A DNA stretch of 14,562 nucleotides from a virus (taxonomy: Duplodnaviria; Heunggongvirae; Uroviricota; Caudoviricetes). The number at the start of each line of letters is the position of its first letter. Positions within the stretch are counted from its first letter, which is position 1. Shown one piece after another: positions 1 through 14,562 of this stretch. The stretch is taken from the IMG/VR virus record IMGVR_UViG_2695420651_000023, positions 1 to 14,562 of that record. The stretch is one strand, 5' to 3'. Position numbers and translations under genes: made by a program. The notes beneath the pieces were generated by a model. It saw only the letters and a program-made list of their open reading frames with translations, was not told the origin of the DNA and did not search any database.

Positions 1-23
1 GGCAGAAGCAGAAAAAGCTTATT

Positions 24-701
24 ATGCTTCCATCAGAAACGATGATCTGGCAGCCTGAGTTCACAGATAAAACACTCTCCAGGAAAACCGGGGCGGTTCA
101 TTTTGCTGCTCTACTTCCGGGGTTTTTGGCACTCAATAATTCTGTATGGGCAAGTGATTTGCCTGGTATGACTCTTAATGAACATGATTTAGTGATAGCC
201 CCACTTAACACCGAAGTTCCATTCTACATTGCAGGGCATCGCAGTCATAGCTCCCATCGGAGCCATAGTTCTCACCGTTCATCATCAGGTGGCGGGTACT
301 ATGGTGGCAGCACTCCCTATTATCCAAAAACATACAGCTCACCAAGTTCATCTGGGTCTTCAAGTTCAGGAACAAGTCCCTCATCGTCCTCTTCCTCTGT
401 GCGTTCGCTTCGTTCTAACGACAATAACAACTCTACTACTACGAATTCTGTTGGAACTACAGAAGCTAACCGTGCAAGTAATGGGCTGACTTCTGGTACA
501 GAGAAGCGTAAGCGCTTAATCATGCGGGTTCAATTCGCTTTGCTGGACAAAGATTATTACAACGGGAATATTGACGGCATAATGGGGCCTTCCACAAGGC
601 AGTCAATAAAAAATTATCGCATTGCGAACGGACTACCAGTGCCCTCAAGTGAAACCTTGGATATACAGTTGTTAAATTCATTAAGTATTTTAGCTCGATA
701 A
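24..701 (+). CDS. secreted His-Xaa-Ser-repeat protein with Ser-rich linker and C-terminal peptidoglycan-binding (PG_binding_1-like) domain
   Basis: N-terminal hydrophobic stretch AVHFAALLPGFLALNNSVWA followed by SD (signal-peptide-like, AXA-type site). Repeat HRSHSSHRSHSSHRSSS. Long S/T/G/N-rich low-complexity linker. C-terminus DGIMGPSTRQSIKNYRIANGLPV resembles PG-binding domain. Reading frame is open upstream to the window edge, so the true start could be 24, 42, or outside the window. Confidence 0.6.
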   Translation: MLPSETMIWQPEFTDKTLSRKTGAVHFAALLPGFLALNNSVWASDLPGMTLNEHDLVIAPLNTEVPFYIAGHRSHSSHRSHSSHRSSSGGGYYGGSTPYYPKTYSSPSSSGSSSSGTSPSSSSSSVRSLRSNDNNNSTTTNSVGTTEANRASNGLTSGTEKRKRLIMRVQFALLDKDYYNGNIDGIMGPSTRQSIKNYRIANGLPVPSSETLDIQLLNSLSILAR

Positions 702-769
702 ATTAAGTATATTAAAAATTTTTCACTTTAACATTAACTTGTATGAATATATATTTCAGAGGCGATTAA

Positions 770-2581
770 ATGTCAGTCAGCTATAACATATATAGAATGC
801 CATATAAGAGTCTTCCAGAATTGACAAAAAAAATCATTAAAGAAGGGCTTGTCGAACAAAAAACTATTCTACATCAATCTTATCAACTCAAATTTTATTT
901 TTCTGATAAATTAAAAGGAAATGAAGTATGGTGGTGGGATGTTTTTAGTGATTTCTTCAATGAAGAAATTGAAAAGCCTCATAATATATTCTATTTTGGC
1001 CTGCTAATAGGATTTAAAGAAAAGGACCCTGAGAATTGCTATCTTATCAGTCTTGGTAAATCACATTTTTATCTCAGCAAGTTTATTGAAGCAGACTTTG
1101 GGCTGAATGTGGCAATGCGTATAGCTAATGATGAAAATATTTTACTCAAGAAAAGCAGATTCTTTTGTGGGGGAAAGAGTCAGGAGGCATCCTCATACTC
1201 ACAGTTTGTTCAAGGAGCATATTTTCCTGGCGAATCCATCGAGCATCTCAAAACAAAAGCCAAAGAAACTGACAAGTGGGGATGTAATAATATAACTTTT
1301 TCTGATTCAATTCAGCTAAGTTTGGATGGTGCTCCTACTGCATTAGTCGATGTTTTCAATGATATTGATTCTTCGTTGGCAACCAAAGAGAAAATCGAAT
1401 TTCCTAAATCGGAAAAAATCACTGACGAGTCAAAGATAGATGAGCTTGATAATTGTCTACTTCAATCGATCATTACAGATGATGCAAAAGTTATTATTGA
1501 TGAGATTCAATCTTTTGGTGCCTCTATTGTAATTAATAATTCTTTGACATTTTTTAAATTGCACACAAAAGTTGAGGGGAGTGGAAAGTATCTTCAATCA
1601 TCAGATAAAATTAATGACATAAAAATAGCAGATGTAAAGAAATTCATAAAAAATAACAACATAAAAGATGTCAATAAAGTTTTTGTTAAGATAACTAATG
1701 AAAATAACAGTGGTCATACAGCCTCGTTAAAAGAAATATTGAGCATTACTTATAGCGAGGGCAGCGAGCACTTCTTCCTTAAGAGGGGAGGATGGAGTCG
1801 ATTTAACTCTGCTTTTATGAAGTATTTGTCTACTTCTTTAGCCAGTATAAAATTTGAGGTTAAAGATGCTCTTAAGGAAGACGACTTCAAAGTATGGCAA
1901 GCTGAAAAAATAAAACAAATCGCAGAAGGAACTTCTAAAGACAAATTAGAATATAGAGAATATTATTTTAATGAAAAGATGTCTGATGAGAAAGGTTATA
2001 TACTTCTAGATCGCCAGCTAAAAAAAATACCATCCTTACGTGATAATGGCAAGGACTACAATGTTGAAGTTGCAGATCTTTATAAAAATGGAGAGATTAT
2101 TGCTGTAAAGATATCAGATAAACCGCATGATCTAATTTATAATATTGAACAGTCAAAAACCACAATTCAAACTATAGTAAGAGGAGTAGTAAAATTTGAA
2201 GAGACAATTACTGATGTGGTTTTATGGATCTCAACTACTACAAAAGCTAAAAAATTAATTGACATCAATTCTATTCAATTTTTATTAGCGGTTCAAACTT
2301 GGAAGGAAGTTGTTGAAGGATTTAATCTGAAACCAAAGATATATTATTCACATCACGATAAACCCCAAAAGAAAAAGGGAAAGAAAAAAACGCATCTTAA
2401 ATCTGAACTTAGAATTGGTTATGGAGAAAGATATCAGGTTATAGCGTCTCAGTATCGCTCCAATATTTGTGTGGATTATGTATCACCGATACTACCAAAA
2501 TTATTATGTTTTAGGTATGGTGATTTACCGCCATACCTCTTTTGTATTTATCTCGCAATGATGTTGTTTACTTTTGTTTAA
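770..2581 (+). CDS. hypothetical protein, 603 aa, AT-rich orphan; candidate defence/abortive-infection protein
   Basis: Long uninterrupted ORF with SD GAGG 7 nt before the ATG. K/N/I-rich composition and very low GC. No TM segments and no catalytic motif (Walker A, HNH, RT YxDD) recognisable by eye. Confidence 0.7.
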   Translation: MSVSYNIYRMPYKSLPELTKKIIKEGLVEQKTILHQSYQLKFYFSDKLKGNEVWWWDVFSDFFNEEIEKPHNIFYFGLLIGFKEKDPENCYLISLGKSHFYLSKFIEADFGLNVAMRIANDENILLKKSRFFCGGKSQEASSYSQFVQGAYFPGESIEHLKTKAKETDKWGCNNITFSDSIQLSLDGAPTALVDVFNDIDSSLATKEKIEFPKSEKITDESKIDELDNCLLQSIITDDAKVIIDEIQSFGASIVINNSLTFFKLHTKVEGSGKYLQSSDKINDIKIADVKKFIKNNNIKDVNKVFVKITNENNSGHTASLKEILSITYSEGSEHFFLKRGGWSRFNSAFMKYLSTSLASIKFEVKDALKEDDFKVWQAEKIKQIAEGTSKDKLEYREYYFNEKMSDEKGYILLDRQLKKIPSLRDNGKDYNVEVADLYKNGEIIAVKISDKPHDLIYNIEQSKTTIQTIVRGVVKFEETITDVVLWISTTTKAKKLIDINSIQFLLAVQTWKEVVEGFNLKPKIYYSHHDKPQKKKGKKKTHLKSELRIGYGERYQVIASQYRSNICVDYVSPILPKLLCFRYGDLPPYLFCIYLAMMLFTFV

Positions 2582-2984
2582 GTCTTCTAAGCTTCATACT
2601 TTCTAATGAGAATAATAATAGAGTTGTGCTGTATATAAAACCAGAGTTAGTTAATAACTTTAAATTTAATGCTTCAGGATTTTCACTGAGAAAATGAAAG
2701 GCATAAACTAAGTATACAGCTAAAGCAGCCGTTCCAATTGTTGGTCCAATATCGCCTTGATCATGAGGTTCAAGGTTTACATTGAATTTAAAGATTAGCC
2801 ATTCAAATCCCCAAGTAAAAAAAACAACTAATATCATGGCTGCGAATAATTTCGCGATGTTATCTGCTGATGGATTCATCAGAACAGATTGTTTCTGAAA
2901 AAATTCACAAAGTGAGAGTCCGAAAAAAATAAAAAAAAGTGGTCTGGAACTAAATTTTTCAAAAACTTTGAATAGGGTTTCCAT
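2568..2984 (-). CDS. small integral membrane protein, 138 aa, about 4 predicted TM helices
   Basis: Four hydrophobic stretches (LFFIFFGLSLCEFF, AAMILVVFFTWGFEWLIF, IGTAALAVYLVYAFHFL, IYSTTLLLFSL). Starts 38 bp downstream of the int stop on the same strand. Its 3' end overlaps the convergent 603-aa gene by 14 bp. Confidence 0.55.
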   Translation of the reverse strand: METLFKVFEKFSSRPLFFIFFGLSLCEFFQKQSVLMNPSADNIAKLFAAMILVVFFTWGFEWLIFKFNVNLEPHDQGDIGPTIGTAALAVYLVYAFHFLSENPEALNLKLLTNSGFIYSTTLLLFSLESMKLRRLKQK

Positions 2985-3022
2985 TTTCTTTACCTTCAGG
3001 ATTATATTAGCTATTCTGATAC

Positions 3023-4252
3023 TTAGGCTACCAGAGCATTTGATCTTTGAGCTTGAACGTAATCACTCCACCATTGCATCAAACTCTGTCGCTCTATCAG
3101 ATATTCTGCACGATTGTATGCTGCGATAATTTCATCTTTTTTCGAGTGGGCAAGCGCTGCCTCAAGAACTTCAGCTCTGAATTTACCAGACTCCTCTGCC
3201 GCTGTTCGCGCAATAGAACGCATACCGTGAGCTACAAGCTCGCCTCCGAACCCCATTCGGATGATAGCTGCGTTGGCTGTTTGTTCATGCATATGATTAA
3301 GAGGCGCTTTAATGCTGGGGAAAACCCATTCTCTATGCCCACTTATTGATTTCATTAATTCAAGGATGCGCAAAGCTTCTTTACTCAAAGGAACTTTGTG
3401 AGGCTTTTTCATTTTCATGAAATCAGCAGGAATGTTCCAAATGCTGTTGGTTGTATCAATATCAGACCATCTTGCGCGAACGGCTTCACCCGGACGAACC
3501 CATGTCAACAATTGCCATTCAATTAGCATACGTGTTTCCAACCGGATTGACGCATTCGTCAAAGATTCCATAAACCTTGGCAATTCGCTTGGGGGAAGGG
3601 CAGGCATATTTTGCTTTTTTGGTTTACTGAATCTTTGACCAAGGTTGTCAGCCGGGTTGAACTCAATAAGTTCTTCAGTAGCTGCCCACCTGAAGATTTC
3701 ATTCAGACGTGAAATGATACGGCGTAGAGTTTCCAATACGCCTCGTTGCTTAATAGGATCAAGGTGTTGTTTTAAGAGCTTAGGCCGGATCTCATTGATA
3801 GGGACATTACCCAGACCAGGAAAGACATTTCTCTCTAAGCTGCGCCAGATGTCTGCTGCATGGTCTTGTGAGATACCTGATGTCTTTACCTTCTCATCTA
3901 ACCATTTCCGCGCTACGGCTTGGAGAGTGTGCTCAGTAGCACTCTTTAATGCCTTCGCCTTATCGTTGTTATGGATTTGTGGATCAACACCATTTGCCAG
4001 AAAGGAAAGATATTCATCACGTAAGGCTCTGGCTCTTGCCAGTGTAAGGTGAGGATAGGTCCCAAGGCTCATTTTGGTTCTTTTTTTACTCACTGGCACT
4101 GCATACCTGAAATACCAATTCTTCTTTCCTCCTTTCGAGAGGGGAGCGATTCGTAGTATCAAACCATCTCCGTCAAACAAGTTGATTTCTTTGTCGGCTG
4201 GCTTGGTGCTTTTGATTTCAGTGTCAGTGAGCTTCTTAGCGATTTTTGCCAT
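3023..4252 (-). CDS. int: tyrosine recombinase, P4-family integrase (N-terminal arm-binding domain)
   Basis: N-terminus MAKIAKKLTDTEIKSTKPADKEINLFDGDGLILRI...WYFRY is typical of P4/CP4-57 IntA-type integrases. Start moved from 4294 to the ATG at 4252, which has SD GAGGG 7 nt upstream. C-terminal catalytic region contains R...H..R and a Tyr-containing segment. Confidence 0.9.
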   Translation of the reverse strand: MAKIAKKLTDTEIKSTKPADKEINLFDGDGLILRIAPLSKGGKKNWYFRYAVPVSKKRTKMSLGTYPHLTLARARALRDEYLSFLANGVDPQIHNNDKAKALKSATEHTLQAVARKWLDEKVKTSGISQDHAADIWRSLERNVFPGLGNVPINEIRPKLLKQHLDPIKQRGVLETLRRIISRLNEIFRWAATEELIEFNPADNLGQRFSKPKKQNMPALPPSELPRFMESLTNASIRLETRMLIEWQLLTWVRPGEAVRARWSDIDTTNSIWNIPADFMKMKKPHKVPLSKEALRILELMKSISGHREWVFPSIKAPLNHMHEQTANAAIIRMGFGGELVAHGMRSIARTAAEESGKFRAEVLEAALAHSKKDEIIAAYNRAEYLIERQSLMQWWSDYVQAQRSNALVA

Positions 4253-4349
4253 TTTGGGACCCTCGGTTTTTGGACCCTTCTTAGTGGGTCTCATTCAGGG
4301 TGCCATAACTCGTAGTTCTCAGCAATTCTCACTGGACGACAATAGACGT

Positions 4350-4381
4350 AAAAAAGCCCGCAGAGCTTGTGCTGTGCGGGC
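4350..4381 (-). terminator. rho-independent terminator on the minus strand, between the ssrA fragment and int
   Basis: Plus strand reads AAAAAA + GCCCGCAGAGC + TTGT + GCTGTGCGGGC (11-bp stem, one mismatch). On the minus strand this is hairpin followed by TTTTTT. Confidence 0.5.
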
Positions 4382-4417
4382 TTAGTAGACTTCATTGTAC
4401 TTCAAACAACTAAAAAG

Positions 4418-4464
4418 TGGTGGAGCTGGCGGGAGTTGAACCCGCGTCCGAAATTCCTACATAC
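4418..4464 (-). repeat. ssrA: 3'-terminal ~47 nt of ssrA (tmRNA), att core repeat; not a complete tmRNA gene
   Basis: Reverse complement reads ATGTAGGAATTTCGGACGCGGGTTCAACTCCCGCCAGCTCCACCA, the acceptor/T-arm end of enterobacterial tmRNA as I recall it. Sequence further upstream (4465 onward) is unrelated to tmRNA. Confidence 0.8.
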
Positions 4465-4612
4465 CATTTTTACCATAACAAAAACATTAAGTTTCGTTTA
4501 AAATCAGTCTGTTATTGTTATTTTGTGTTTGTCCGTTTTACGCTTTTTTAATGTTCTGCCGCCAAAATGCCGCCACATTGTAGGTATTAAGTCTGCTATT
4601 TATCACCTGTTG

Positions 4613-5509
4613 TTAAGACACGCGGGCATCGTACCCATACAAGTCTTGAAAGCATGAGTAAAACAATTCTTGATTGTTGAGTTCGCCCTTTGTTTCCGGT
4701 ATTTCACTCTGTAGAAAATTTTTATTAATTGTCCACTCAATAGCTAAAGTATTAGTGTAGTTTGTTGAACTACTAATTTTAGCATTATTAGGATGAAAAA
4801 GTTGCTGTATAAATTCAATATCTGAATCAAGTGAAATAAAATGTATGTTTGCATTATCTTTTAATCTATCATCAAATCTAAGTTGGATAGTGGTTTTGTA
4901 ATGATTAAAATCAGCAATTGGGTTATAAGATGAAAAATTTTTACTTTTAAATTTTAATATCTTCTCAGCTCGTTGGCTTCCAAAGATATACATCAGAGCT
5001 ACAATTGTAAACGGTTGGTTTTTAAATTCATTAAACTCGTTTACTATCTCTTTAAACTCATAATATGTATTCTCTCGTTGTTCTACTTTCTTTGTTTCCC
5101 CTATTTTTTCTTGTAGCTTATCAAGGAATTTTGTTTTTTTATCTATTAATCTGTCAGTTTCTTTTTCATATATTATTTTTGATAGTTTATTTACATTGGA
5201 TGTTAGGAAATCATAATCAGTGTTAGCTTCTTTAATAAATGATTTTACAATTTCACTATCCTCTATAATTAATTTTCTTATTTTTTTATTAGGTGTTTTT
5301 ATGATTTCTAATTTGCCGTTACTGTCAAGTTTTTTATGGGTTTTTCCTTCTATTATTGATAGTAAAGGTGAGAAAGTATTTCCTTTGATATCTAATGCTT
5401 TTAATTTATTAAGCATATCAATTCTATTAGGTTCTGGGATATTAGAAGAATTGTTGTGCTTATTCATTAGATCAATTATGTTTCGATCTAAAAGGTAGAG
5501 CTCTGTCAT
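4613..5509 (-). CDS. hypothetical protein, 298 aa, AT-rich moron between prophage int and att
   Basis: ORF begins 12 bp downstream of the int stop on the same strand. K/N/I/E-rich, very low GC. No TM segments or recognisable motifs. Confidence 0.7.
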   Translation of the reverse strand: MTELYLLDRNIIDLMNKHNNSSNIPEPNRIDMLNKLKALDIKGNTFSPLLSIIEGKTHKKLDSNGKLEIIKTPNKKIRKLIIEDSEIVKSFIKEANTDYDFLTSNVNKLSKIIYEKETDRLIDKKTKFLDKLQEKIGETKKVEQRENTYYEFKEIVNEFNEFKNQPFTIVALMYIFGSQRAEKILKFKSKNFSSYNPIADFNHYKTTIQLRFDDRLKDNANIHFISLDSDIEFIQQLFHPNNAKISSSTNYTNTLAIEWTINKNFLQSEIPETKGELNNQELFYSCFQDLYGYDARVS

Positions 5510-5521
5510 AATAATTACCTT

Positions 5522-6547
5522 TTAATTAGTAGAAAAAAGAGTGGCTAAAGGATTTTTTGTCACCGCATCTTCAAGATGCTCTGGTGCGAAATGAGCATAA
5601 ATCATGGTCATTTTTATATCGGTATGGCCTAAAATTTCTTTAAGCACAAGTATATTACCGCCATTCATCATAAAGTGGCTGGCGAATGTATGGCGTAGCA
5701 CGTGGGTGCATTGTCCTTCTGGCAGTTCGATACCGGCCCGCTTTACTGCCCGCTCAAAGGCTTTTCTGCATGGTGTGAATAATTTCCCTCTATTTTTGGG
5801 AAGTTCGTCATACAGATCCTGAGATATTGGCACGGTACGGTTTTTCTTGCCCTTCGTCTTGGTGTATGTGATGCGGTATTTTGACAACTGGTGTCCCTGC
5901 AGATTTTCTGCTTCACTCCAGCGTGCTCCGGTGGCCAGGCATATTTTTGCAATCATCAGCAGGCTGGGGCTTTGAGAATCTGCGCAGGCATCCAACAGGC
6001 GCTTGATTTCGTCCATGGAAAGAAAGGCCAGCTCACCTTCAGCAATTTTAAATGTAGGAAGTCCTGCCAGTGGGTTTGGTGCTGACCAGTGTCCCAGCTT
6101 TTTCAGTGTGCCAAAAACCGATGACAGGTTGCGTTGTTCAAGATTTACCGTGCGGGGCTTAACAGGCGACATAAGCGCGCCATCTTCATTTCGCACTTCA
6201 CCCTTTAGCCGTGCTTCCCGGTATTTCGTAAAATCACCGGCGGTCAGTTCTGAAGCGATGGGATCGCCCAGACCATTACAGATAATTTTAAGTTTCGCCA
6301 TCAGGCGTTTGGGGTCAGCAAGCGTCTGCCCGTAAAGTGAGTACCATTGTTCAATCACTTCTGACAAATGTCGCCGATCTTCCTTTTCCCCCAGCCACGG
6401 TTTTTTGTTCACTTCTTCCATTGTGAAACGTTCAAACGCAATGGCTTCGCCTTTTGTCGCAAATTGTTTACGTACGCGTTTGCCATCTCGCCCGTTTGGG
6501 TAGCATTCACACAACCACTTTCCGTTCGGCTGTTTTCTGATCGTCAT
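5522..6547 (-). CDS. int: tyrosine integrase, P2/186 family
   Basis: N-terminus MTIRKQPNGKWLCECYPNGRDGKRVRKQFATKGEAIAFE resembles P2 Int. C-terminal HVLRHTFAS...GH...IYAH catalytic box. Start lies 2 bp after the cI stop. Confidence 0.9.
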   Translation of the reverse strand: MTIRKQPNGKWLCECYPNGRDGKRVRKQFATKGEAIAFERFTMEEVNKKPWLGEKEDRRHLSEVIEQWYSLYGQTLADPKRLMAKLKIICNGLGDPIASELTAGDFTKYREARLKGEVRNEDGALMSPVKPRTVNLEQRNLSSVFGTLKKLGHWSAPNPLAGLPTFKIAEGELAFLSMDEIKRLLDACADSQSPSLLMIAKICLATGARWSEAENLQGHQLSKYRITYTKTKGKKNRTVPISQDLYDELPKNRGKLFTPCRKAFERAVKRAGIELPEGQCTHVLRHTFASHFMMNGGNILVLKEILGHTDIKMTMIYAHFAPEHLEDAVTKNPLATLFSTN

Positions 6548-6549
6548 TA

Positions 6550-7182
6550 TTAGATGCTCTTAATCACTTTTACCACACGCCCTACAACGGCTACGTCATC
6601 AACTGCACATTCAAAGGTTGTTTCTTCCTGATGAACAACAAGCTTATTTCCGGGAATTCGAGCTACTTTTACGATGCTTTTCACTCCATCAATATCAACA
6701 AGCCAAGAGCCATTACTGATCTGTTTTACAGATACATCAACAATAAAACTTTCTGTTGTCGTTTGTATGAATAGATAGTTTGACGAATCGCCCTCAACCA
6801 ACCTGCTATCTAATAAAATTTCGTCATATGATTGAAGTTCACCATTTCTTAATTCTGTGTATTTGATACTGGGAGCTACGATTTTAGAAAGTGGTCTAAT
6901 TGTGACGTCATTATCATTTTTGAGAATGTTTGAGTCACAGTTATCTGCATACATATCACCCTGTCCGGTTGCCAACCAAAGAAGCGAGATCCCGGTTTCT
7001 AGAGCACATTGAATTACCCACTCTGCTGGAAAGCTATCTCTTAAGTATCTGTTTGCCATGGTGCTTTTAGATACTTTTAAGTGTTCGCAGAGTTGTTGGC
7101 GTGAGCTGAAATTGTAGGCTTTTATCAGCCTGTTGATGGCATCACGCCCCCCACTATCGTTTCCACCCTTGATTAGACTCAT
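6550..7182 (-). CDS. cI: CI-type immunity repressor (186-like), N-terminal HTH
   Basis: Start moved from 7314 to the ATG at 7182 (MSLIKGGN...), which has a G-rich SD. HTH-like segment QQLCEHLKVSKSTMANRYL. Sits immediately upstream of int and divergent from the apl-like gene. Confidence 0.75.
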   Translation of the reverse strand: MSLIKGGNDSGGRDAINRLIKAYNFSSRQQLCEHLKVSKSTMANRYLRDSFPAEWVIQCALETGISLLWLATGQGDMYADNCDSNILKNDNDVTIRPLSKIVAPSIKYTELRNGELQSYDEILLDSRLVEGDSSNYLFIQTTTESFIVDVSVKQISNGSWLVDIDGVKSIVKVARIPGNKLVVHQEETTFECAVDDVAVVGRVVKVIKSI

Positions 7183-7300
7183 AATCAAACCCCCCCTGAC
7201 GCATATAAAATGAGATCTTAATATCCATTCATGGTTTGAAAAGCAAAACCAAACCACATAAAACGAGATGATACGATTACAAACTAAGAGATACTGCACT
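7183..7300. promoter_or_regulatory. lysis/lysogeny switch region between cI and the apl-like gene (promoters and operators)
   Basis: 118-bp AT-rich divergent intergenic region. Inverted repeat TGGTTT-N8-AAACCA at 7232..7251. TTGAAA hexamer at 7236..7241. Confidence 0.4.
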
Positions 7301-7549
7301 ATGAGCAACGACATTTCAATTCGTGTACCAAAAGTGATGGCGACACCAGCTGAGTTCGCGGAATGGGAAGGCCGCTCTCGCGGTTCGGTATATCAAATGA
7401 TTCATAATGGAAAACTCGCTAAATTCTTGGAAAGAAAAGAAAAACCGAAAGACAGAGTATGTATACGTTACCTTGAGTACAAAAAGGAACAAGTCAGGAA
7501 AAACATGGGCCAATCCAATTTCAACTTTAATGTCATCGTTGGTGACTAA
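7301..7549 (+). CDS. Apl/Cox-like small HTH protein (excisionase/transcriptional repressor)
   Basis: 82 aa; HTH-like segment ATPAEFAEWEGRSRGSVYQMIHNGKL. First rightward gene opposite cI. Start choice (7301 versus 7268 or 7337) is uncertain. Confidence 0.55.
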   Translation: MSNDISIRVPKVMATPAEFAEWEGRSRGSVYQMIHNGKLAKFLERKEKPKDRVCIRYLEYKKEQVRKNMGQSNFNFNVIVGD

Positions 7550-7581
7550 GTTCAATTATGAGAACTTTCTAAGGGGGCAGC

Positions 7582-8091
7582 ATGTTTGATTACAAGATTT
7601 CCAAACATCCGCATTTTGATGAAGCCTGTAGAGCTTTTGCACTACGTCACAATATGGCGAAGCTGGCAGAACGTGCAGGAATGAATGTTCAGACACTGCG
7701 AAACAAACTCAACCCAGATCAACCGCATCAGCTCACCGCATCAGAAATCTGGCTGCTTACCGATCTGACTGAAGATTCAACGCTGGTAGATGGTTTTCTG
7801 GCACAGATTCACTGCCTGCCATGTGTACCGATTAATGAGGTAGCAAAAGAGAAACTGCCGCATTACGTCATGAGTGCAACCGCAGAGATCGGGCGTGTTG
7901 CTGCAGGTGCGGTATCTGGCGATGTAAAAACCAGTGCAGGTCGTCGTGATGCTATCAGCAGCATTAACTCTGTAACACGACTGATGGCGCTGGCTGCTGT
8001 TTCATTGCAGGCCCGTTTACAGGCTAACCCTGCGATGGCGAGTGCAGTTGATACCGTGACTGGCCTCGGTGCTTCATTCGGATTGCTGTGA
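7582..8091 (+). CDS. cII: CII-like regulatory protein (186 CP76 family)
   Basis: 169 aa, the same length as 186 CII as I recall it. Sits immediately after the apl-like gene with a G-rich SD. Confidence 0.55.
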   Translation: MFDYKISKHPHFDEACRAFALRHNMAKLAERAGMNVQTLRNKLNPDQPHQLTASEIWLLTDLTEDSTLVDGFLAQIHCLPCVPINEVAKEKLPHYVMSATAEIGRVAAGAVSGDVKTSAGRRDAISSINSVTRLMALAAVSLQARLQANPAMASAVDTVTGLGASFGLL

Positions 8092-8265
8092 GGTGCTTAT
8101 GCTGACGAAAGAACCATCATTTGCATCGCTGCTGGTAAAACAAAGTCCGGCAATGCACTACGGTCACGGCTGGATCATGGGTGAGGATGGTAAACGCTGG
8201 CATCCATGTCATTCACAAGATGAATTGCTGTCTGAATTGACCACGAGGAAACGGAGAAAGTCAAA

Positions 8266-8490
8266 ATGTATGCAGCGGAAAGTGAAGTGGTTTATCAGTT
8301 TCGTTACAGAGGGGAGAGTTATTCAGTACCTGAAGATGATTTGCTCTGTTGTTATCCGTCGTTGTCGGGCGATGGCAGTTACTTTTTCACGCTAAAGGAT
8401 GGGACGTTTTTACGGGGAGAGCAGGTTAAAGAGACGATACGAAAAAATGTATCTCCTCTTGAACGTTACCGTAAGAACAAAGAACGATAG
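8266..8490 (+). CDS. hypothetical early protein, 74 aa
   Basis: Good SD (GGAG, about 9-nt spacer). Protein-like composition. Overlaps an alternative ORF at 8099..8395 in another frame. Confidence 0.45.
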   Translation: MYAAESEVVYQFRYRGESYSVPEDDLLCCYPSLSGDGSYFFTLKDGTFLRGEQVKETIRKNVSPLERYRKNKER

Positions 8491-8512
8491 TTGCGTTTTG
8501 GGGATATGAATT

Positions 8513-8854
8513 ATGGCAATTAATGGCGCTGCGGCGACTGTTCCATTAAGCCCCGGTGAACGCCTGAATGGACTTAATCATATTGCGGAATTAAGGGCGA
8601 AAGTTTTTGGCCTGAATATTGAGTCAGAGCTTGAGCGGTTTATTAAAGATATGCGTGATCCACGGGATATCAATAATGAACAAAATAAACGGGCACTGGC
8701 TGCTATATTCTTTATGGCAAAAATTCCAGCTGAACGTCATAGCATCAGCATTAATGAGCTGACCACTGACGAAAAGCGGGAGCTGATTAAAGCAATGAAT
8801 CATTTTCGTGCGGTGGTGAGCTTATTTCCCAGACGGCTAACCATGCCGAATTAA
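8513..8854 (+). CDS. hypothetical phage early protein, 113 aa
   Basis: ATG with GGGGA SD. Balanced composition. Sits in the early operon. Confidence 0.55.
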   Translation: MAINGAAATVPLSPGERLNGLNHIAELRAKVFGLNIESELERFIKDMRDPRDINNEQNKRALAAIFFMAKIPAERHSISINELTTDEKRELIKAMNHFRAVVSLFPRRLTMPN

Positions 8855-8921
8855 CCAACTAATGAAATTAATGGCGTAAACCCGCCGGGCATCCCTTTAT
8901 CTAAATTCAGGAGAATTGATT

Positions 8922-9155
8922 ATGCGTAATATTGAAATCCTCACGACTAAAACCGGACCGGATGATGCAGGGCTTAATATTTTACTGACAGAGGCTCGTC
9001 TGGAAGAACGCCGGGCAAGGGCTGAAGCAATGGCAGCTCGCCTTGATAGCCTGGCGTGTCATATCTCATCCCGTCAGCTAAACCACGTGGAAGCGGCAGA
9101 ACTGCTGCGTGTGACTGCTGAAGCAATCCAGAACGAAGCGCAGGAGATCCACTAA
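8922..9155 (+). CDS. hypothetical phage early protein, 77 aa
   Basis: Start taken at the ATG at 8922 (SD CAGGAG, 8-nt spacer) rather than the TTG at 8916. Stop overlaps the next gene's start (TAATG). Confidence 0.55.
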   Translation: MRNIEILTTKTGPDDAGLNILLTEARLEERRARAEAMAARLDSLACHISSRQLNHVEAAELLRVTAEAIQNEAQEIH

Positions 9156-9382
9156 TGGCTGATGCAATGGATCTCGTACAGCAGCGCGTTGAAGAAGAAC
9201 GCCAGCGCTATATCCGTGCTGCCCGTGCCAAAACACCGGGCGTGTCTCGTGTGCTTTGTATTGAATGTGAAGCGCCAATTCCGCCAGCACGACGCCGCGC
9301 CATTCCTGGAGTGCAGCTTTGCATTACCTGTCAGGAAATCGCAGAGCTGAAAGGCAAACATTACAACGGAGGTGTTGTATGA
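9155..9382 (+). CDS. TraR/DksA-family C4 zinc-finger protein
   Basis: CIECEAPIPPARRRAIPGVQLCITC gives Cys-x2-Cys-x17-Cys-x2-Cys. Translationally coupled to both neighbours. Confidence 0.75.
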   Translation: MADAMDLVQQRVEEERQRYIRAARAKTPGVSRVLCIECEAPIPPARRRAIPGVQLCITCQEIAELKGKHYNGGVV

Positions 9383-10236
9383 GTACCATCCTGAAATGGG
9401 CGGGAAATAAAACCGCCATTATGTCCGAACTGAAAAAACATCTTCCTGCTGGCCCGCGACTGGTTGAACCTTTCGCGGGTTCCTGTGCTGTGATGATGGA
9501 GACGGATTACCCCAGCTATCTTGTTGCGGATATTAATCCTGATTTAATCAACCTCTATAAAAAGGTTGCTGCTGATTGCGAGGCGTTTATATCTCGTGCC
9601 AGAGCTTTATTTGAGGAAGCAAACAGGGAGGTGGCTTATTACAACATAAGGCAGGAGTTTAATTACTCCACTGAAATTACTGATTTCATGAAAGCGGTAT
9701 ATTTCCTGTATCTCAATCGTCATGGTTACCGTGGGTTATGTCGCTATAACAAGAGCGGGCATTTCAACATTCCGTACGGTAATTATAAAAATCCGTATTT
9801 CCCTGAAAAAGAAATTCGCGCATTTGCAGAGAAAGCCCAGCGGGCAACGTTTATCTGCGCCAGCTTTGATGAAACGCTGGCGATGTTGAAGGCGGGGGAT
9901 GTGGTGTATTGCGATCCGCCTTATGACGGTATGTTTTCCGGCTATCACACTGACGGCTTCACTGAAGATGACCAGTATCACCTGGCATCCGTTCTTGAAC
10001 ATCGGTCATCAGAAGGACATCCGGTCATTGTTTCTAACAGTGACACATCCCTGATCCGTTCGCTGTATCGCAATTTTACTCACCACTACATCAAGGCAAA
10101 ACGCAGCATCGGCGTGGCAGCTGGTGAGAGTAAATCTGCAACAGAAATCATCGCTGTTTCCGGGCCGCGCTGCTGGGTAGGATTTGATCCTTCGCGTGGC
10201 GTGGATTGTTCCGTCGTGTACGGAGTGCGTGCATGA
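9379..10236 (+). CDS. dam: DNA adenine methyltransferase (Dam-like, N6-adenine, GATC-type)
   Basis: Strong similarity to E. coli Dam as I recall it: [37 protein letters not shown] (motif IV DPPY). Start at 9379 (SD GGAGGTG) overlaps the upstream stop (ATGA). Confidence 0.9.
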
Positions 10237-12647
10237 GCCATGCTGATATGAACAACTGCAGCGGCTTTAACGAGTTCGCCGCAGCATTCTCATGGAACAG
10301 CCCGAAAAAGGCCATTAACCCTTATCTGGACCCGGCGGAAGTTGCGCCGGTTTCTGCGCTTTCAAACCTGATCACTCTGTACGCTGCCGATAACGAGCAG
10401 GAACAACTGCGCCGCGAGGCACTGAGTGATCAGGTCTGGGAGCGTTATTTCTTTAATGAATCCCGTGATCCTGTCCAGCGCGAAATGGAACAGGATAAGC
10501 TCATTAGTCGGGCAAAGCTGGCGCATGAGCAGCAGCGTTTTAATCCGGATATGGTCATTCTGGCGGACGTCAACGCCCAGCCTTCCCATATCAGCAAGCC
10601 GCTGATGCAACGTATTGAATACTTCAGCAGCCAGGGCAGGCCAAAGGCTTATTCCCGCTATTTACGTGAGACGATTAAGCCATGTCTGGAACGGCTGGAG
10701 CATGTACGCGACAGTCAGCTATCCACTTCTTTTCGCTTTATGGCAAGCCATGAAGGGCTGGACGGCCTGCTGATTCTGCCTGAAATGAGTCAGGATCAGG
10801 TGAAACGCCTGTCCACCCTTGTTGCTGCGCATATGAGCATGTGCCTTGATGCAGCTTGTGGCGATTTGTATGCCACCGATGACGTTAAGCCAGAAGAAAT
10901 CCGCAAGACATGGGAAAGGGTGGCGGCGGAAACCCTGCGTCTGGATGTCATCCCACCTGCGTTTGAGCAACTCCGCCGGAAAAGAAACCGCCGTAAACCC
11001 GTGCCCTATGAACTCATTCCGGGTTCGCTGGCGCGTATGTTGTGCGCCGACTGGTGGTATCGGAAATTATGGAAGATGCGTTGCGAATGGCGGGAGGAGC
11101 AGTTGCGCGCTGTCTGCCTGGTTAGCAAAAAAGCATCTCCTTATGTCAGCTATGAAGCCGTGATGCATAAACGTGAGCAGCGCCGTAAGTCGCTGGAGTT
11201 TTTCCGTTCTCATGAACTGGTGAACGAAGACGGCGACACGCTGGACATGGAGGATGTGGTAAACGCCAGCAGCAGCAACCCTGCGCATCGCCGCAATGAG
11301 ATGATGGCCTGTGTTAAAGGTCTGGAGCTTATCGCGGAAATGCGCGGTGACTGCGCCGTTTTCTACACCATCACCTGTCCGTCACGTTTCCATTCCACGC
11401 TAAATAACGGCAGGCCCAACCCAACCTGGACAAATGCGACGGTAAGACAAAGTAGTGATTATCTGGTCGGCATGTTTGCTGCATTTCGTAAGGCGATGCA
11501 CAAAGCCGGATTGCGCTGGTATGGCGTGCGGGTGGCTGAGCCGCATCATGACGGTACAGTTCACTGGCACCTGTTGTGTTTTATGCGCAAAAAAGACCGC
11601 CGCGCCATCACTGCATTACTGCGTAAGTTTGCCATCCGTGAAGACCGCGATGAGCTGGGCAATAACACTGGGCCGCGCTTTAAGTCTGAGTTGATTAACC
11701 CGCGCAAAGGTACGCCAACAAGCTACATCGCGAAATACATCAGTAAGAACATTGACGGGCGTGGTCTGACTGGCGAGATCAGCAAGGAAACGGGGAAATC
11801 CCTGCGTGATAATGCTGAATACGTTAATGCCTGGGCGTCTCTGCATCGTGTTCAGCAATTCCGCTTCTTTGGCATTCCGGGGCGTCAGGCTTACCGTGAA
11901 CTGCGATTGCTGGCTGGTCAGGCGGCAAGGCAACAGGGGGACAAAAAAGCAGGTGCGCCGGTACTGGATAACCCGCGCCTTGATGCAATCCTGGCTGCTG
12001 CTGATGCTGGTTGTTTTGCCACCTACATCATGAAGCAGGGCGGCGTACTGGTTCCCCGCAAATATCACCTGATCAGAACCGCTTATGAAATCAACGAAGA
12101 GCCGACCGCCTATGGCGATCACGGCATTCGTATTTATGGCATCTGGTCACCCATTGCAGAGGGCAAGATCTGCACTCATGCGGTGAAGTGGAAAATGGTT
12201 CGTAAGGCCGTTGACGTTCAGGAGGCGGCAGCCGACCAGGGCGCTTGCGCCCCTTGGACTCGTGGCAATAACTGTCCCCTTGCTGAAAATTTGAACCAAC
12301 AAGGGAAAGACAAATCAGCTGATGGGGATACCAGAACGGAAATCACCCGCATGGATGACAAGGAATTGCACGATTACCTGCACAGTATGAGCAAAAAAGA
12401 GCGCCGGGAACTGGCAGCAAGGTTACGCCTGGTTAAACCGAAACGGCGTAAAGACTACAAACAGCGAATTACAGATCATCAGCGACAGCAGCTCGTCTAT
12501 GAACTGAAGTCCAGAGGATTTGATGGCAGCGAGAAAGAGGTCGATTTACTCCTTCGCGGCGGCAGTATTCCGTCAGGAGCAGGCCTGCGTATCTTCTATC
12601 GGAACCAGCGTCTGCAGGAGGATGATAAATGGCGGAACCTGTATTAA
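10233..12647 (+). CDS. replication initiation endonuclease, P2/186 gene A family (rolling-circle, HUH-type)
   Basis: HUH-like motif [13 protein letters not shown] and twin-tyrosine motif [10 protein letters not shown] (phiX174 gpA / P2 A type YxxKY). Start at 10233 overlaps the dam stop (ATGA). 804 aa. Confidence 0.85.
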
Positions 12648-12741
12648 TTACGCAGGTTAACAATTCGTGCTCTTAATAATACCAGGCATATCAGGCTGAT
12701 GAGCGTAAAAAAACGTTTTACATCAGTAAGATTATTATATG

Positions 12742-12757
12742 CTGTAAATATAAACAG
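12742..12757. promoter_or_regulatory. LexA (SOS) box upstream of the tum/dinI-like operon
   Basis: CTGTAAATATAAACAG matches the CTGT-N8-ACAG consensus. Lies 43 bp upstream of the ATG at 12800, with a TATACA -10-like hexamer just downstream. Confidence 0.6.
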
Positions 12758-12799
12758 TGGTTATGTATACAGTGTTGCTTTGGTGTCATAGGAGGAAAG

Positions 12800-12988
12800 A
12801 TGCAGGACTATTTTTTGGAGTCTTTGAAGCTCCAGCGCATTGATTTTTTTCTTAAGCTTGTAGCGGCTAGTGAGTGTAGTGATGAAGAGAAGGGGCTGGC
12901 CCTGCAGTGGGTTTCTGAACTGACAGATGAACTCATGGCAAAAATCAGAACCCACGAATACAACCGCTCAATGGATGTCATCAGCTGA
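12800..12988 (+). CDS. small SOS-operon protein, 62 aa; candidate Tum-like antirepressor (N-terminal part)
   Basis: AGGAGG SD 6 nt upstream. First gene after the LexA box. Position corresponds to 186 tum. Confidence 0.5.
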   Translation: MQDYFLESLKLQRIDFFLKLVAASECSDEEKGLALQWVSELTDELMAKIRTHEYNRSMDVIS

Positions 12989-12998
12989 GGTGACTTTT

Positions 12999-13232
12999 AT
13001 GCGCATTGAAATAATGATCGATAAAGAGCAGAAGATTAGCCAGTCTACCCTGGACGCTCTGGAGTCAGAGCTTTACCGCAACCTGCAACCCATCTATCCC
13101 AAGACAGCTATCCGCATCCGTAAAGGGTCGGCAAACGGCGTTGAGCTGAGTGGCTTAAAGCTTGATGAAGACAAAAAGCGGGTGATGGAAATTATGCAGC
13201 AGGTTTGGGAAGACGACAGCTGGCTGCACTAA
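12999..13232 (+). CDS. DinI-family protein, 77 aa
   Basis: MRIEIMIDK...LDALESEL...DEDKKRVMEIMQQVWEDDSW aligns by eye with E. coli DinI (MRIEVTIAK...IDALAGEL...KEDKQRISEILQETWESADDW). Start at the ATG at 12999 with SD GAGGTG. Confidence 0.8.
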   Translation: MRIEIMIDKEQKISQSTLDALESELYRNLQPIYPKTAIRIRKGSANGVELSGLKLDEDKKRVMEIMQQVWEDDSWLH

Positions 13233-13305
13233 GGAACGTTCCTGATGTAAGAACTTGATTCTGACGTCAGCAAGGTTGAACAACGAGAGTAGCGAGGCGT
13301 TAGCC

Positions 13306-13566
13306 ATGGGTAAAAAAGACAGTAATCACCAGATTATTTATCGGGGCCAGGTGCTGGAACGGTTTACCCCTGGCGGCTGGGTCTTCTTTCAACGCCCAAA
13401 GGAGTGTGGCGGAGGTTTTTGGTTGGGCCGCACCTATGAAGACTGCTTCTGGCTTGAGCTGGAATTCCCCGTTTCGCTATATGACGGCCTGGAGTTTTTG
13501 ATGGAAGTCACCAGGGTAGAGCAGAGAAGTGATGAGGTTGACGCGAATTATTCCCTGTTTGATTAA
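13306..13566 (+). CDS. hypothetical protein, 86 aa
   Basis: ATG at 13306 with GAGG SD; the track's upstream extension uses a TTG start. No recognisable motifs. Confidence 0.5.
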   Translation: MGKKDSNHQIIYRGQVLERFTPGGWVFFQRPKECGGGFWLGRTYEDCFWLELEFPVSLYDGLEFLMEVTRVEQRSDEVDANYSLFD

Positions 13567-13585
13567 AAATGTATTAGCTTATAAT
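13559..13585 (+). promoter_or_regulatory. sigma70-like promoter for the 203-aa gene
   Basis: -35 TTGATT (13559..13564), 15-bp spacer, perfect -10 TATAAT (13580..13585), about 30 bp upstream of the ATG at 13615. Confidence 0.45.
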
Positions 13586-13614
13586 GGAATACTATTTTTG
13601 CAGGTGGGGGCGCA

Positions 13615-14226
13615 ATGGATTTAGTCTTTAAAATTCTGGCTTCGTTGGGTGGGGTGTCTTTTGTTGCATCTGGCATATTTGTTTGGATCGGGAAAGTTTA
13701 TTTAGAAAGATATAAGTCGCGGCTAAACAAAGATATTGCTGAATTTCAATCACAACTGAGTGCAACTAATGAAAGAATAAAGGCTAAGTTAGACAATTCT
13801 GTTTATGTAACGAAAGCGTATTTTGATAAGGAGTTATCAGCATATAGTCTCATTTGGAATTCGATGTTTGAAACCAGAGAAAGCGTGCTTAAGCTGAGGC
13901 CTGCGCTGGATCATTTTGACCCCAACGAACCATTTGAAGAGAGAAAATTTAGAAGGTTGAAAGTTTTTTTCGATGCATTTAATACTTTTGTTACAAGTGT
14001 TGAGTCTAACAAACCGTTCATCTCACCAGAGGTTTATATAATCTTGGACCGTTTCCGGAAGGAATGCCTTTCAGAGTCAATATCGTTTCAGCATGGCGAT
14101 CCAGAATTTGACTGGCAAAATTATTGGAAAGAGGCAGAGTTGAACCGTACAACCATCACCAAGCTTTTTGATGAGACGTGTGATGCAATTCGAGACAGGA
14201 TGCACACATTAACTGTGGTTACGTAG
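13615..14226 (+). CDS. membrane-anchored hypothetical protein, 203 aa (single N-terminal TM helix); candidate defence moron
   Basis: N-terminal hydrophobic helix ILASLGGVSFVASGIFVWIG, then a charged/coiled-coil-like region. Own promoter and strong SD AGGTGGGGG. Lower GC than the phage core. Confidence 0.7.
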   Translation: MDLVFKILASLGGVSFVASGIFVWIGKVYLERYKSRLNKDIAEFQSQLSATNERIKAKLDNSVYVTKAYFDKELSAYSLIWNSMFETRESVLKLRPALDHFDPNEPFEERKFRRLKVFFDAFNTFVTSVESNKPFISPEVYIILDRFRKECLSESISFQHGDPEFDWQNYWKEAELNRTTITKLFDETCDAIRDRMHTLTVVT

Positions 14227-14317
14227 TTTTCCAAAAAGTCTCGATGCCCGCTTTGGCGATTGTGCATGTCTATGCCGCATGAATCCGCATGATCGTTTGA
14301 GGATCGTTTTAGCTGAG

Positions 14318-14341
14318 GCCCGCTAGGAATGGCGGGCTTTT
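14318..14341 (+). terminator. rho-independent terminator
   Basis: GCCCGC + 8-nt loop TAGGAATG + GCGGGC, followed by TTTT. Confidence 0.55.
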
Positions 14342-14386
14342 GCTTATGTCATGCAGGCGCATGAAAACCACTACATAAAGCGGGCA

Positions 14387-14405
14387 GGCGTGGCGGGGAT
14401 ACGAG
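14387..14405. other. cos-like site (P2/186-type cohesive end)
   Basis: GGCGTGGCGGGGATACGAG resembles the 19-nt P2/186 cohesive end (GGCG[A/T]GGCGGGGA...) as recalled from memory. Position between the early region and the expected late genes fits the P2 map. Confidence 0.35.
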
Positions 14406-14562
14406 CGCGCGCTCATGGTTGAATTAATGAAATTATGGTGTTAAATAGGCTAGCTTTTGGTGATGCTGCCAACTTACTGATTTAGTGTATGATGGTGTTT
14501 TTGAGGTGCTCCAGTGGCTTCTGTTTCTATCAGCTGTCCCTCCTGTTCAGCTACTGACGGGG

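Follow-up and report, generated by a model that had tools for sequence, protein, structure and literature searches.

We show here that the large AT-rich gene near one end of a 14,562-nucleotide stretch of Caudoviricetes-assigned DNA (IMG/VR record IMGVR_UViG_2695420651_000023, positions 1 to 14,562; hereafter the window) belongs to DUF6119/TIGR04141, a catalogued, functionally uncharacterised protein family, and we propose, with a probability of roughly 0.55, that DUF6119 is a stand-alone, auto-inhibited defence nuclease that moves as cargo among defence hotspots. The window is E. coli chromosome of the O55:H7/O157:H7 type at the integration site in ssrA, the gene for transfer-messenger RNA (tmRNA). 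An initial annotation, made from the letters alone, had described an orphan pair beside a P4-type integrase, consisting of a 603-residue protein and a convergent 138-residue membrane protein, and had suggested the pair, or the large gene alone, as a defence or abortive-infection module. The coordinates of both open reading frames (ORFs; 770..2581 on the + strand with an ATG start, and 2568..2984 on the - strand) and of the adjoining integrase were verified, as was the fall in GC content, which is 0.321 across 770..2984 (0.32 and 0.31 for the two genes) against 0.448 in the integrase and in the neighbouring hxsA remnant and 0.486 in the prophage core. The large gene by itself is a credible uncharacterised defence candidate, judged from its genomic context and nuclease-like fold; its description as an orphan, its stated length and its pairing with the small gene had to be given up. 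The account had also passed over a frameshift, the adjacent hxsA remnant and the insertion that destroyed the operon to which hxsA belonged.

The 603-residue protein matches Pfam DUF6119 (PF19614) with an E-value of 5e-27 and 95.1 bits (cutoff 27) and NCBIfam TIGR04141 ('sporadically distributed protein') with 76.6 bits (cutoff 35), and RefSeq already labels it 'DUF6119 family protein'; the 138-residue protein likewise matches a catalogued family, phrog_6556, of unknown function (E 1e-68), so that the statement that neither protein carries a recognisable motif did not survive. Within its family the window protein belongs to a sub-branch whose match to the Pfam model is confined to positions 40-433 of 524; the E. 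coli alleles of loci L072 and L074 match the model at full length with ~420 bits. DUF6119 is rare (541 representatives at 50% identity among 1.84 billion proteins) and spans many phyla in a sporadic and patchy manner, its full-length members of ~500-560 residues sharing a single architecture with no long fusion forms. The gene is not a categorically new kind of system. It is under selection: compared with homologues that are 81-89% identical, its ratio of nonsynonymous to synonymous substitution rates (dN/dS) is 0.06-0.07, and this purifying selection extends across the whole 540 residues. The native part of the protein has neither a predicted signal peptide nor a predicted membrane segment. 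A phage structural or housekeeping role, which the initial annotation had named as one outcome that would speak against defence, was looked for and rejected: 50,697 phage records yielded just three weak tblastn matches (23% identity), the structural model found no match among viral structures with Foldseek at E<=0.001, and the PHROGs gave a marginal match (E 3e-4) to a family of unknown function.

The length of 603 residues is itself the product of a frameshift. Alignment to a 97%-identical enterotoxigenic E. coli (ETEC) strain and to the O55:H7 strain USDA5905 places a run of seven adenines (A7; 2384..2390, +) in the window where these strains, like most relatives, have eight (A8). Among seven near-identical loci A8 is present in five, and A7 only in the window and in strain DEC5E. 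The A8 allele encodes a protein ending ...KKKGKKKN(A/V)S* at 543 residues; many homologues end in such a lysine-rich tail, which accounts for the slippery poly-A run. In the window the native stop codon (TAA, 2398-2400) is out of frame, and the -1 frameshift appends a 63-residue tail (2391..2581, +) of a kind found in no homologue. Since an intrinsic-terminator-like hairpin (2513..2538, +; a 10-bp stem followed by a T-rich tract), situated 3' of the native stop, falls within the extra 63 codons, the tail is a translated 3' untranslated region. The native frame (770..2389, +, residues 1-540) is 99% identical over 540 residues to the 543-residue WP_001718712.1, and the 543-residue form fits the length and architecture of the family, nearly all of 120 homologues being listed at ~515-555 residues. 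The frameshift comes after H529, the last position to be conserved; the conserved core is spared, and no more than three native residues are exchanged. Though a genuine, recurrent variant, A7 is a minority allele: the exact 603-residue sequence is carried by 21 public contigs and its annotated 594-residue form by nine, against more than 340 with the 543- and 544-residue forms, and a 603-residue version is present in Klebsiella variicola as well. The Prokaryotic Genome Annotation Pipeline (PGAP) treats the alleles discordantly, flagging the A8 copy of USDA5905 with its native 543-residue frame as 'frameshifted' (locus L001, 9674-11486) while annotating the A7 copy of DEC5E as an intact 594-residue protein (L003, 6797-8581); the frameshifted form seems to serve as its reference protein model. 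The 603- and 594-residue protein models of E. coli O55:H7/O157:H7 are products of a poly-A slip, and the 543-residue form should be the reference.

The structural case for a nuclease comes from the C-terminal domain. The full-length AlphaFold2 model has a mean predicted local distance difference test score (pLDDT) of 77.5 and leaves residues 125-158 as a disordered loop, while residues 388-540 (1931..2389, +) modelled alone reach a pLDDT of 83.2 and adopt an alpha-beta-beta-beta-alpha-beta-alpha-beta layout, in which the alpha-beta-beta-beta-alpha-beta core fold of the PD-(D/E)xK superfamily is present. In structural comparison the domain was closest to N.BspD6I (7.7), CdiA-CT EC869 (7.5), an XisH-like protein (7.4), NucS, FokI and SfsA (7.3 each), followed in order by LlaBIII, BamHI, Shedu SduA, NgoMIV, McrC and HamA, and it models as a PD-(D/E)xK-type nuclease. 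Five residues are invariant in 23 of 23 sequences ranging from E. coli to candidate-phyla-radiation bacteria, Cyanobacteria and Firmicutes, and the model places them on helix 1 (E397, codon 1958-1960), strand 2 (E433, 2066-2068; D436, 2075-2077), strand 3 (K447, 2108-2110) and helix 2 (Q461, 2150-2152). Position 445, where the canonical (D/E)xK acidic residue is expected, is Ser or Ala, so the putative active site would be a variant, which E433, E397 and Q461 could complete together with D436 and K447. Such a variant would resemble the SxK type of Cfr10I and NgoMIV. The domain differs from FokI/N.BspD6I, NucS, Cfr10I/NgoMIV, Shedu SduA, Hachiman HamA and CdiA-CT EC869 in that the middle acid is Ser/Ala and E433 and E397 are conserved instead; nor does the ~390-residue N-terminal region resemble these PD-(D/E)xK effectors, and no family-wide helicase, methylase or immunity partner was seen beside DUF6119. 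Those N-terminal ~390 residues gave only weak and inconsistent fold matches. At the level of sequence, the family profile found nothing below E 0.18 among Protein Data Bank entries, and the isolated C-terminal domain found nothing in Pfam at E<=10. A relationship to the abortive-infection toxins RnlA/LsoA was considered and set aside, the matches having a high root-mean-square deviation and giving no evidence of homology; RnlA is, unlike DUF6119, a HEPN RNase with a cognate antitoxin, RnlB.

The genomic neighbourhood ties DUF6119 to a recently described defence system. HXS, composed of HxsD, HxsB, HxsC and HxsA, is an anti-phage system that blocks phage DNA entry (Nat Commun 2026; PMC13128918); in the passages of that paper considered here all four genes are required, the cloned four-gene set protected against 110 of 113 coliphages, and a fifth gene is not mentioned. 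Representative genomes have hxsDBCA directly upstream in 12 of 49 DUF6119 loci. Complete E. coli genomes carry hxs in 155 of 5,426 cases, and at these 155 loci the window-type DUF6119 allele occurs 28 times and another DUF6119 gene, occupying the same place, 72 times, for a total of ~100 (adjacency to hxsA was checked by coordinates for the listed loci and assumed for the rest). The gene starts 18-130 bp after hxsA on the same strand and exists in several alleles, the one at the 72 loci scoring ~420 bits to the Pfam model, yet showing no link to the window protein by BLASTP. An independent metagenomic sample (loci L077-L154) gave a DUF6119-family ORF after hxsA, defined as one starting within -200 to +400 bp of the hxsA end, in 31 of 63 evaluable HXS loci. 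DUF6119 thus lies immediately after the HXS genes, on their strand, at about half to two-thirds of the HXS loci in enterobacteria, the intact island of USDA5905 among them, and what this adds to HXS is that at least half of the enterobacterial loci carry DUF6119 as a fifth, same-strand gene. It is not a constant part of the system (~65% of E. coli and 49% of metagenomic HXS loci). HXS is a four-gene periplasmic system, whereas the DUF6119 protein has no predicted signal peptide, is absent from an HXS locus inside a P2-like prophage and is widespread without HXS, most of the genes outside Enterobacterales having no hxs within 10 kb.

What else occupies the position after hxsA is, in our view, the strongest contextual evidence for a defence role. 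Where DUF6119 is missing, the slot holds Gabija (GajA 911 bits, GajB 680 bits), QatA with QatB, or PDC-S06, and further occupants are a 919-residue SIR2/ThsA-like protein and a 153-residue gene paired with an ATP-grasp gene; at several more metagenomic HXS loci no same-strand gene follows hxsA. The site just behind hxsA is a hotspot at which defence genes are exchanged, and because known defence systems fill it, DUF6119 is best seen as interchangeable defence cargo and not as an obligatory HXS subunit. An obligatory five-gene hxs-DUF6119 operon was accordingly dropped once Gabija, Qat, PDC-S06 and SIR2 had appeared in the same place.

Away from hxs, DUF6119 is found within restriction-modification loci. 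It sits between Mod and Res of type III systems, with gaps of 5-12 bp, in metagenome-assembled genomes of three unrelated phyla (Saccharicenans, Paceibacterota and Zixibacteria; L055 7512-14429, L061 1722-8738 and L068 7492-14426), and in two further phyla it comes immediately behind type I HsdR (Legionella and Thermobacillus; L049, L051). DUF6119 also occurs beside a TerB / BrxC-like ATPase / helicase set carried by an integrative element of Pectobacterium, beside an SLFN/AlbA_2 protein in Pseudomonas, and, on mobilisable islands, near relaxase, ParB and recombinase genes; in the E. coli island, Lamassu-like genes are found further along. Across the contexts examined, no small ORF recurred as a conserved partner. 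PrrC/RloC-type nucleases are likewise embedded in restriction-modification loci, PrrC being an ABC-ATPase fused to an anticodon nuclease. DUF6119 resembles them as a predicted stand-alone nuclease gene within a restriction-modification operon (here Mod-DUF6119-Res) and, unlike them in descent, has no sequence or fold relationship to PrrC.

From these observations we infer nuclease activity, a defence role and auto-inhibition. The native 543-residue protein would act as a cytoplasmic single-gene defence in which N-terminal beta-rich domains hold the C-terminal PD-(D/E)xK-type nuclease domain off until an infection cue arrives, upon which the C-terminal domain would cut nucleic acid, either phage DNA or, in an abortive-infection mode, host DNA. 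The gene would travel as modular cargo of defence hotspots, after hxsDBCA on islands and mobilisable elements of Enterobacterales and inside type III or type I restriction-modification operons elsewhere. If so, DUF6119/TIGR04141, a family without an assigned function, gains a concrete and testable role as a nuclease-type anti-phage gene with E433, D436 and K447 as candidate key residues. Several observations weigh against this proposal. PADLOC v2.0.0 returned no match at E<=0.1 for either the 603- or the 138-residue protein; the searchable literature on DUF6119, TIGR04141 and PF19614 holds incidental mentions only and nothing on function; many pseudomonad and betaproteobacterial copies lie amid ordinary genes with no obvious defence neighbours; the canonical acid at position 445 is replaced; and the copy in the window bears a hydrophobic, non-native tail and has lost the hxs operon upstream of it.

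That last point bears on the state of the locus. Positions 1..99 (+) are the end of an IS3-family insertion element, and the hxsA remnant (the His-Xaa-Ser repeat effector of HXS; 100..701, +) follows directly, identified by NCBIfam TIGR03979 HxsA (151.9 bits, cutoff 121.65) and by an alignment to the intact USDA5905 locus that begins only at about window position 100. The open frame 24..701 (225 residues) is a fusion of the IS end to hxsA, and the remnant lacks the native start codon and the start of the signal peptide. In strain DEC5E, whose sequence is identical to that of the window, an IS3 transposase is annotated at this place. The IS3 insertion thus deleted hxsD, hxsB, hxsC and the first five hxsA codons including the start codon, and given the need for all four genes stated in the passages of PMC13128918, HXS is inactive in the window strain, as in O55:H7 DEC5E. 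Just 5' of the DUF6119 start codon lies a sigma-70-like promoter match (728..755, +; TTAACA, 16 nt, TATATT; 10/12), which is a match to consensus only, in a scan that returned 22 sites against 13.2 expected in shuffled sequence.

The DUF6119 copy may accordingly be impaired in the window by its foreign tail and the loss of the upstream operon, and there is some chance, although we do not favour it, that the locus is nothing but a decaying remnant in which DUF6119 has been inactivated or impaired and no function is left. The A7 slip with its hydrophobic tail, the removal of hxsDBC and the hxsA start by the IS3 element, and the disagreement of PGAP between strains as to which allele is 'frameshifted' all fit decay; they are offset by the position of the frameshift past H529, where only the final three native residues are altered, by the promoter-like site directly 5' of the gene, and by the persistence of the allele on ~30 contigs and the occurrence of a 603-residue form in K. 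variicola. Decay would in any case concern this copy, and a different question is whether DUF6119 is a working fifth member of HXS, or its back-up, and plays the same part for restriction-modification systems elsewhere. It would then be a nuclease of the cytoplasm whose target is DNA that has slipped past the HxsA block in the periplasm, or one triggered by inhibition of the first-line system, as PrrC is within the EcoprrI restriction locus. The tight same-strand linkage to hxsA speaks for such a partnership, as do the short gaps between Mod, DUF6119 and Res and the retention of the linkage across alleles with 42% or no BLASTP-detectable identity, the Hxs proteins being 71-96% identical (in Dryocola and Photorhabdus DUF6119 is only 42% identical to that of the window and the Hxs proteins 71-82%). 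We nonetheless regard it as unlikely: the four hxs genes protected on their own when cloned (PMC13128918, in the passages considered), the HXS locus of the P2-like prophage does without DUF6119, most DUF6119 genes outside Enterobacterales have no hxs nearby, and autonomous Gabija, Qat and a SIR2 protein in the same slot fit a cargo hotspot better than an obligatory partnership. A related and somewhat more doubtful version makes DUF6119 a 'rider' nuclease that attaches specifically to first-line, entry-level defences (HXS in Enterobacterales, type III or type I restriction-modification in other phyla), a cytoplasmic back-up or guardian that could be switched on by phage DNA passing these defences or by their inhibition; if true, it would extend PrrC-like logic to a new fold and a periplasmic partner.

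Less plausible again is that DUF6119 serves the mobile element, whether as a nuclease of selfish or homing type or as a factor for processing DNA or maintaining integrative elements, and that its location among defence genes is incidental. Its sporadic, patchy spread across phyla, its precise insertion between Mod and Res and the relaxase, ParB and recombinase neighbours on mobilisable islands would suit such a role, but strong purifying selection over all 540 residues would not, nor would the consistent same-strand, operon-like position beside defence genes; moreover, the alternative occupants of the slot are defence systems and not mobility genes, and many copies have no mobility gene nearby. 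The explanation to which we give very little credence is the one first proposed, namely that the 603-residue protein and the convergent 138-residue protein form one two-gene abortive-infection or toxin-antitoxin module. The genes are adjacent, both AT-rich and overlap by 14 bp in the window, but this overlap exists only because of the A7 frameshift, and in A8 alleles 168 bp separate the two. Seven loci hold the 138-residue gene 39 bp after an integrase, and none of the seven (0/7) has DUF6119 or hxs; conversely, the 138-residue gene is found at just 3 of 49 DUF6119 loci in representative genomes, all three on near-identical islands, and an ssrA island of Enterobacter roggenkampii carries hxsDBCA-DUF6119 with no 138-residue gene, PD-Lambda-2 (A, B, C) adjoining the integrase there. 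The 138-residue family is, furthermore, confined to Enterobacterales, whereas DUF6119 occurs in many phyla.

The 138-residue gene instead follows the integrase whatever the cargo, and we take it as part of the integrase backbone and not as a partner of DUF6119, the best explanation being that the two are functionally unrelated. In the window (2568..2984, -; assigned by phrog_6556 and hydropathy) the gene is spaced 39 bp from the integrase, which lies upstream, and at the Serratia and metagenomic loci the same 39 bp separate it from an upstream integrase that shares 90.7% identity with that of the window; in a Salmonella locus the integrase beside it is truncated. Of the four transmembrane segments proposed earlier, hydrophobic stretches are indeed present at residues ~14-30, 44-66, 81-99 and 112-127, although just two of these reach a 19-residue Kyte-Doolittle mean above 1.4. 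The phrog_6556 match covers only residues 36-138, beginning at Met36, while homologues from other genera are conserved over all 138 residues, which leaves the assigned start codon tentative.

The integrase itself (3023..4294, -) is a P4-family tyrosine integrase of the ssrA island with Arm-DNA-bind_3, Phage_int_M and Phage_integrase domains and a match to NF007246 (441.5 bits, cutoff 434). P4-like satellites and ssrA islands such as CP4-57 are known for integrase-proximal cargo hotspots, and the idea of a variable cargo slot beside the integrase was borne out, islands with a 90%-identical integrase carrying PD-Lambda-2 in one case and a Response_reg_2 protein, a GHKL ATPase and a C5 methylase in another. 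The locus resembles CP4-57-type hotspots in having a P4-family integrase at ssrA with variable, mostly defence-type cargo beyond it, and departs from them in that the first gene after the integrase, the 138-residue one, is conserved backbone and not variable cargo. The comparison with P4-like satellites goes no further than the integrase. The intact USDA5905 island has annotations only for the integrase, the 138-residue gene, DUF6119, hxsDBCA, a partial integrase and Lamassu-like genes, and over the ~12 kb examined beyond the integrase no P4 primase/helicase, psu/sid/delta or cos is annotated; a satellite was therefore rejected in favour of a genomic island lacking annotated P4 replication, capsid-size or cos functions.

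The second of these cargo sets is a conserved trio of the Serratia ssrA island (L005 8508-14491; likewise L004 and L006-L010), which follows the integrase and 138-residue gene and consists of the 581-residue Response_reg_2 protein, a ~1000-residue HATPase_c/GHKL-type ATPase and a C5 DNA methylase. The Response_reg_2 protein and the ATPase have no PADLOC match, and the trio may be an uncharacterised methylase-linked defence system.

Beyond the integrase the window shows a doubly occupied ssrA, a P2/186-like prophage having entered at the 3' end of the gene beside the older P4-type-integrase island, with only the 45-nt ssrA 3' repeat left between the two. This repeat, the last ~45 nt of ssrA, was read from the sequence at 4418..4462 (-) and represents the attachment-site repeat; ARAGORN and Rfam detected no complete tRNA or tmRNA in the window, only this fragment being present. 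In prophage-free strains similarity to the window stops at 4460-4462, and ssrA is complete there. The prophage runs from 4463 onward and comprises a 298-residue AT-rich ORF, a P2-type integrase, CI, CII and later genes. The first of these (4613..5509, -; GC 0.276), the second AT-rich ORF of the window, is flanked by the ssrA attachment repeat and the P2/186-type integrase; it had no significant match in Pfam, NCBIfam, PADLOC (E<=0.1) or PHROGs and zero tblastn matches among 50,697 phage genomes, and is orphan cargo in the prophage slot between attachment site and integrase. The CI repressor ORF (6550..7314, -) is listed at 254 residues with ~45 extra residues at its N-terminus, the Pfam CI domains beginning at residue 58, and the true start is probably an internal Met near residue 45.

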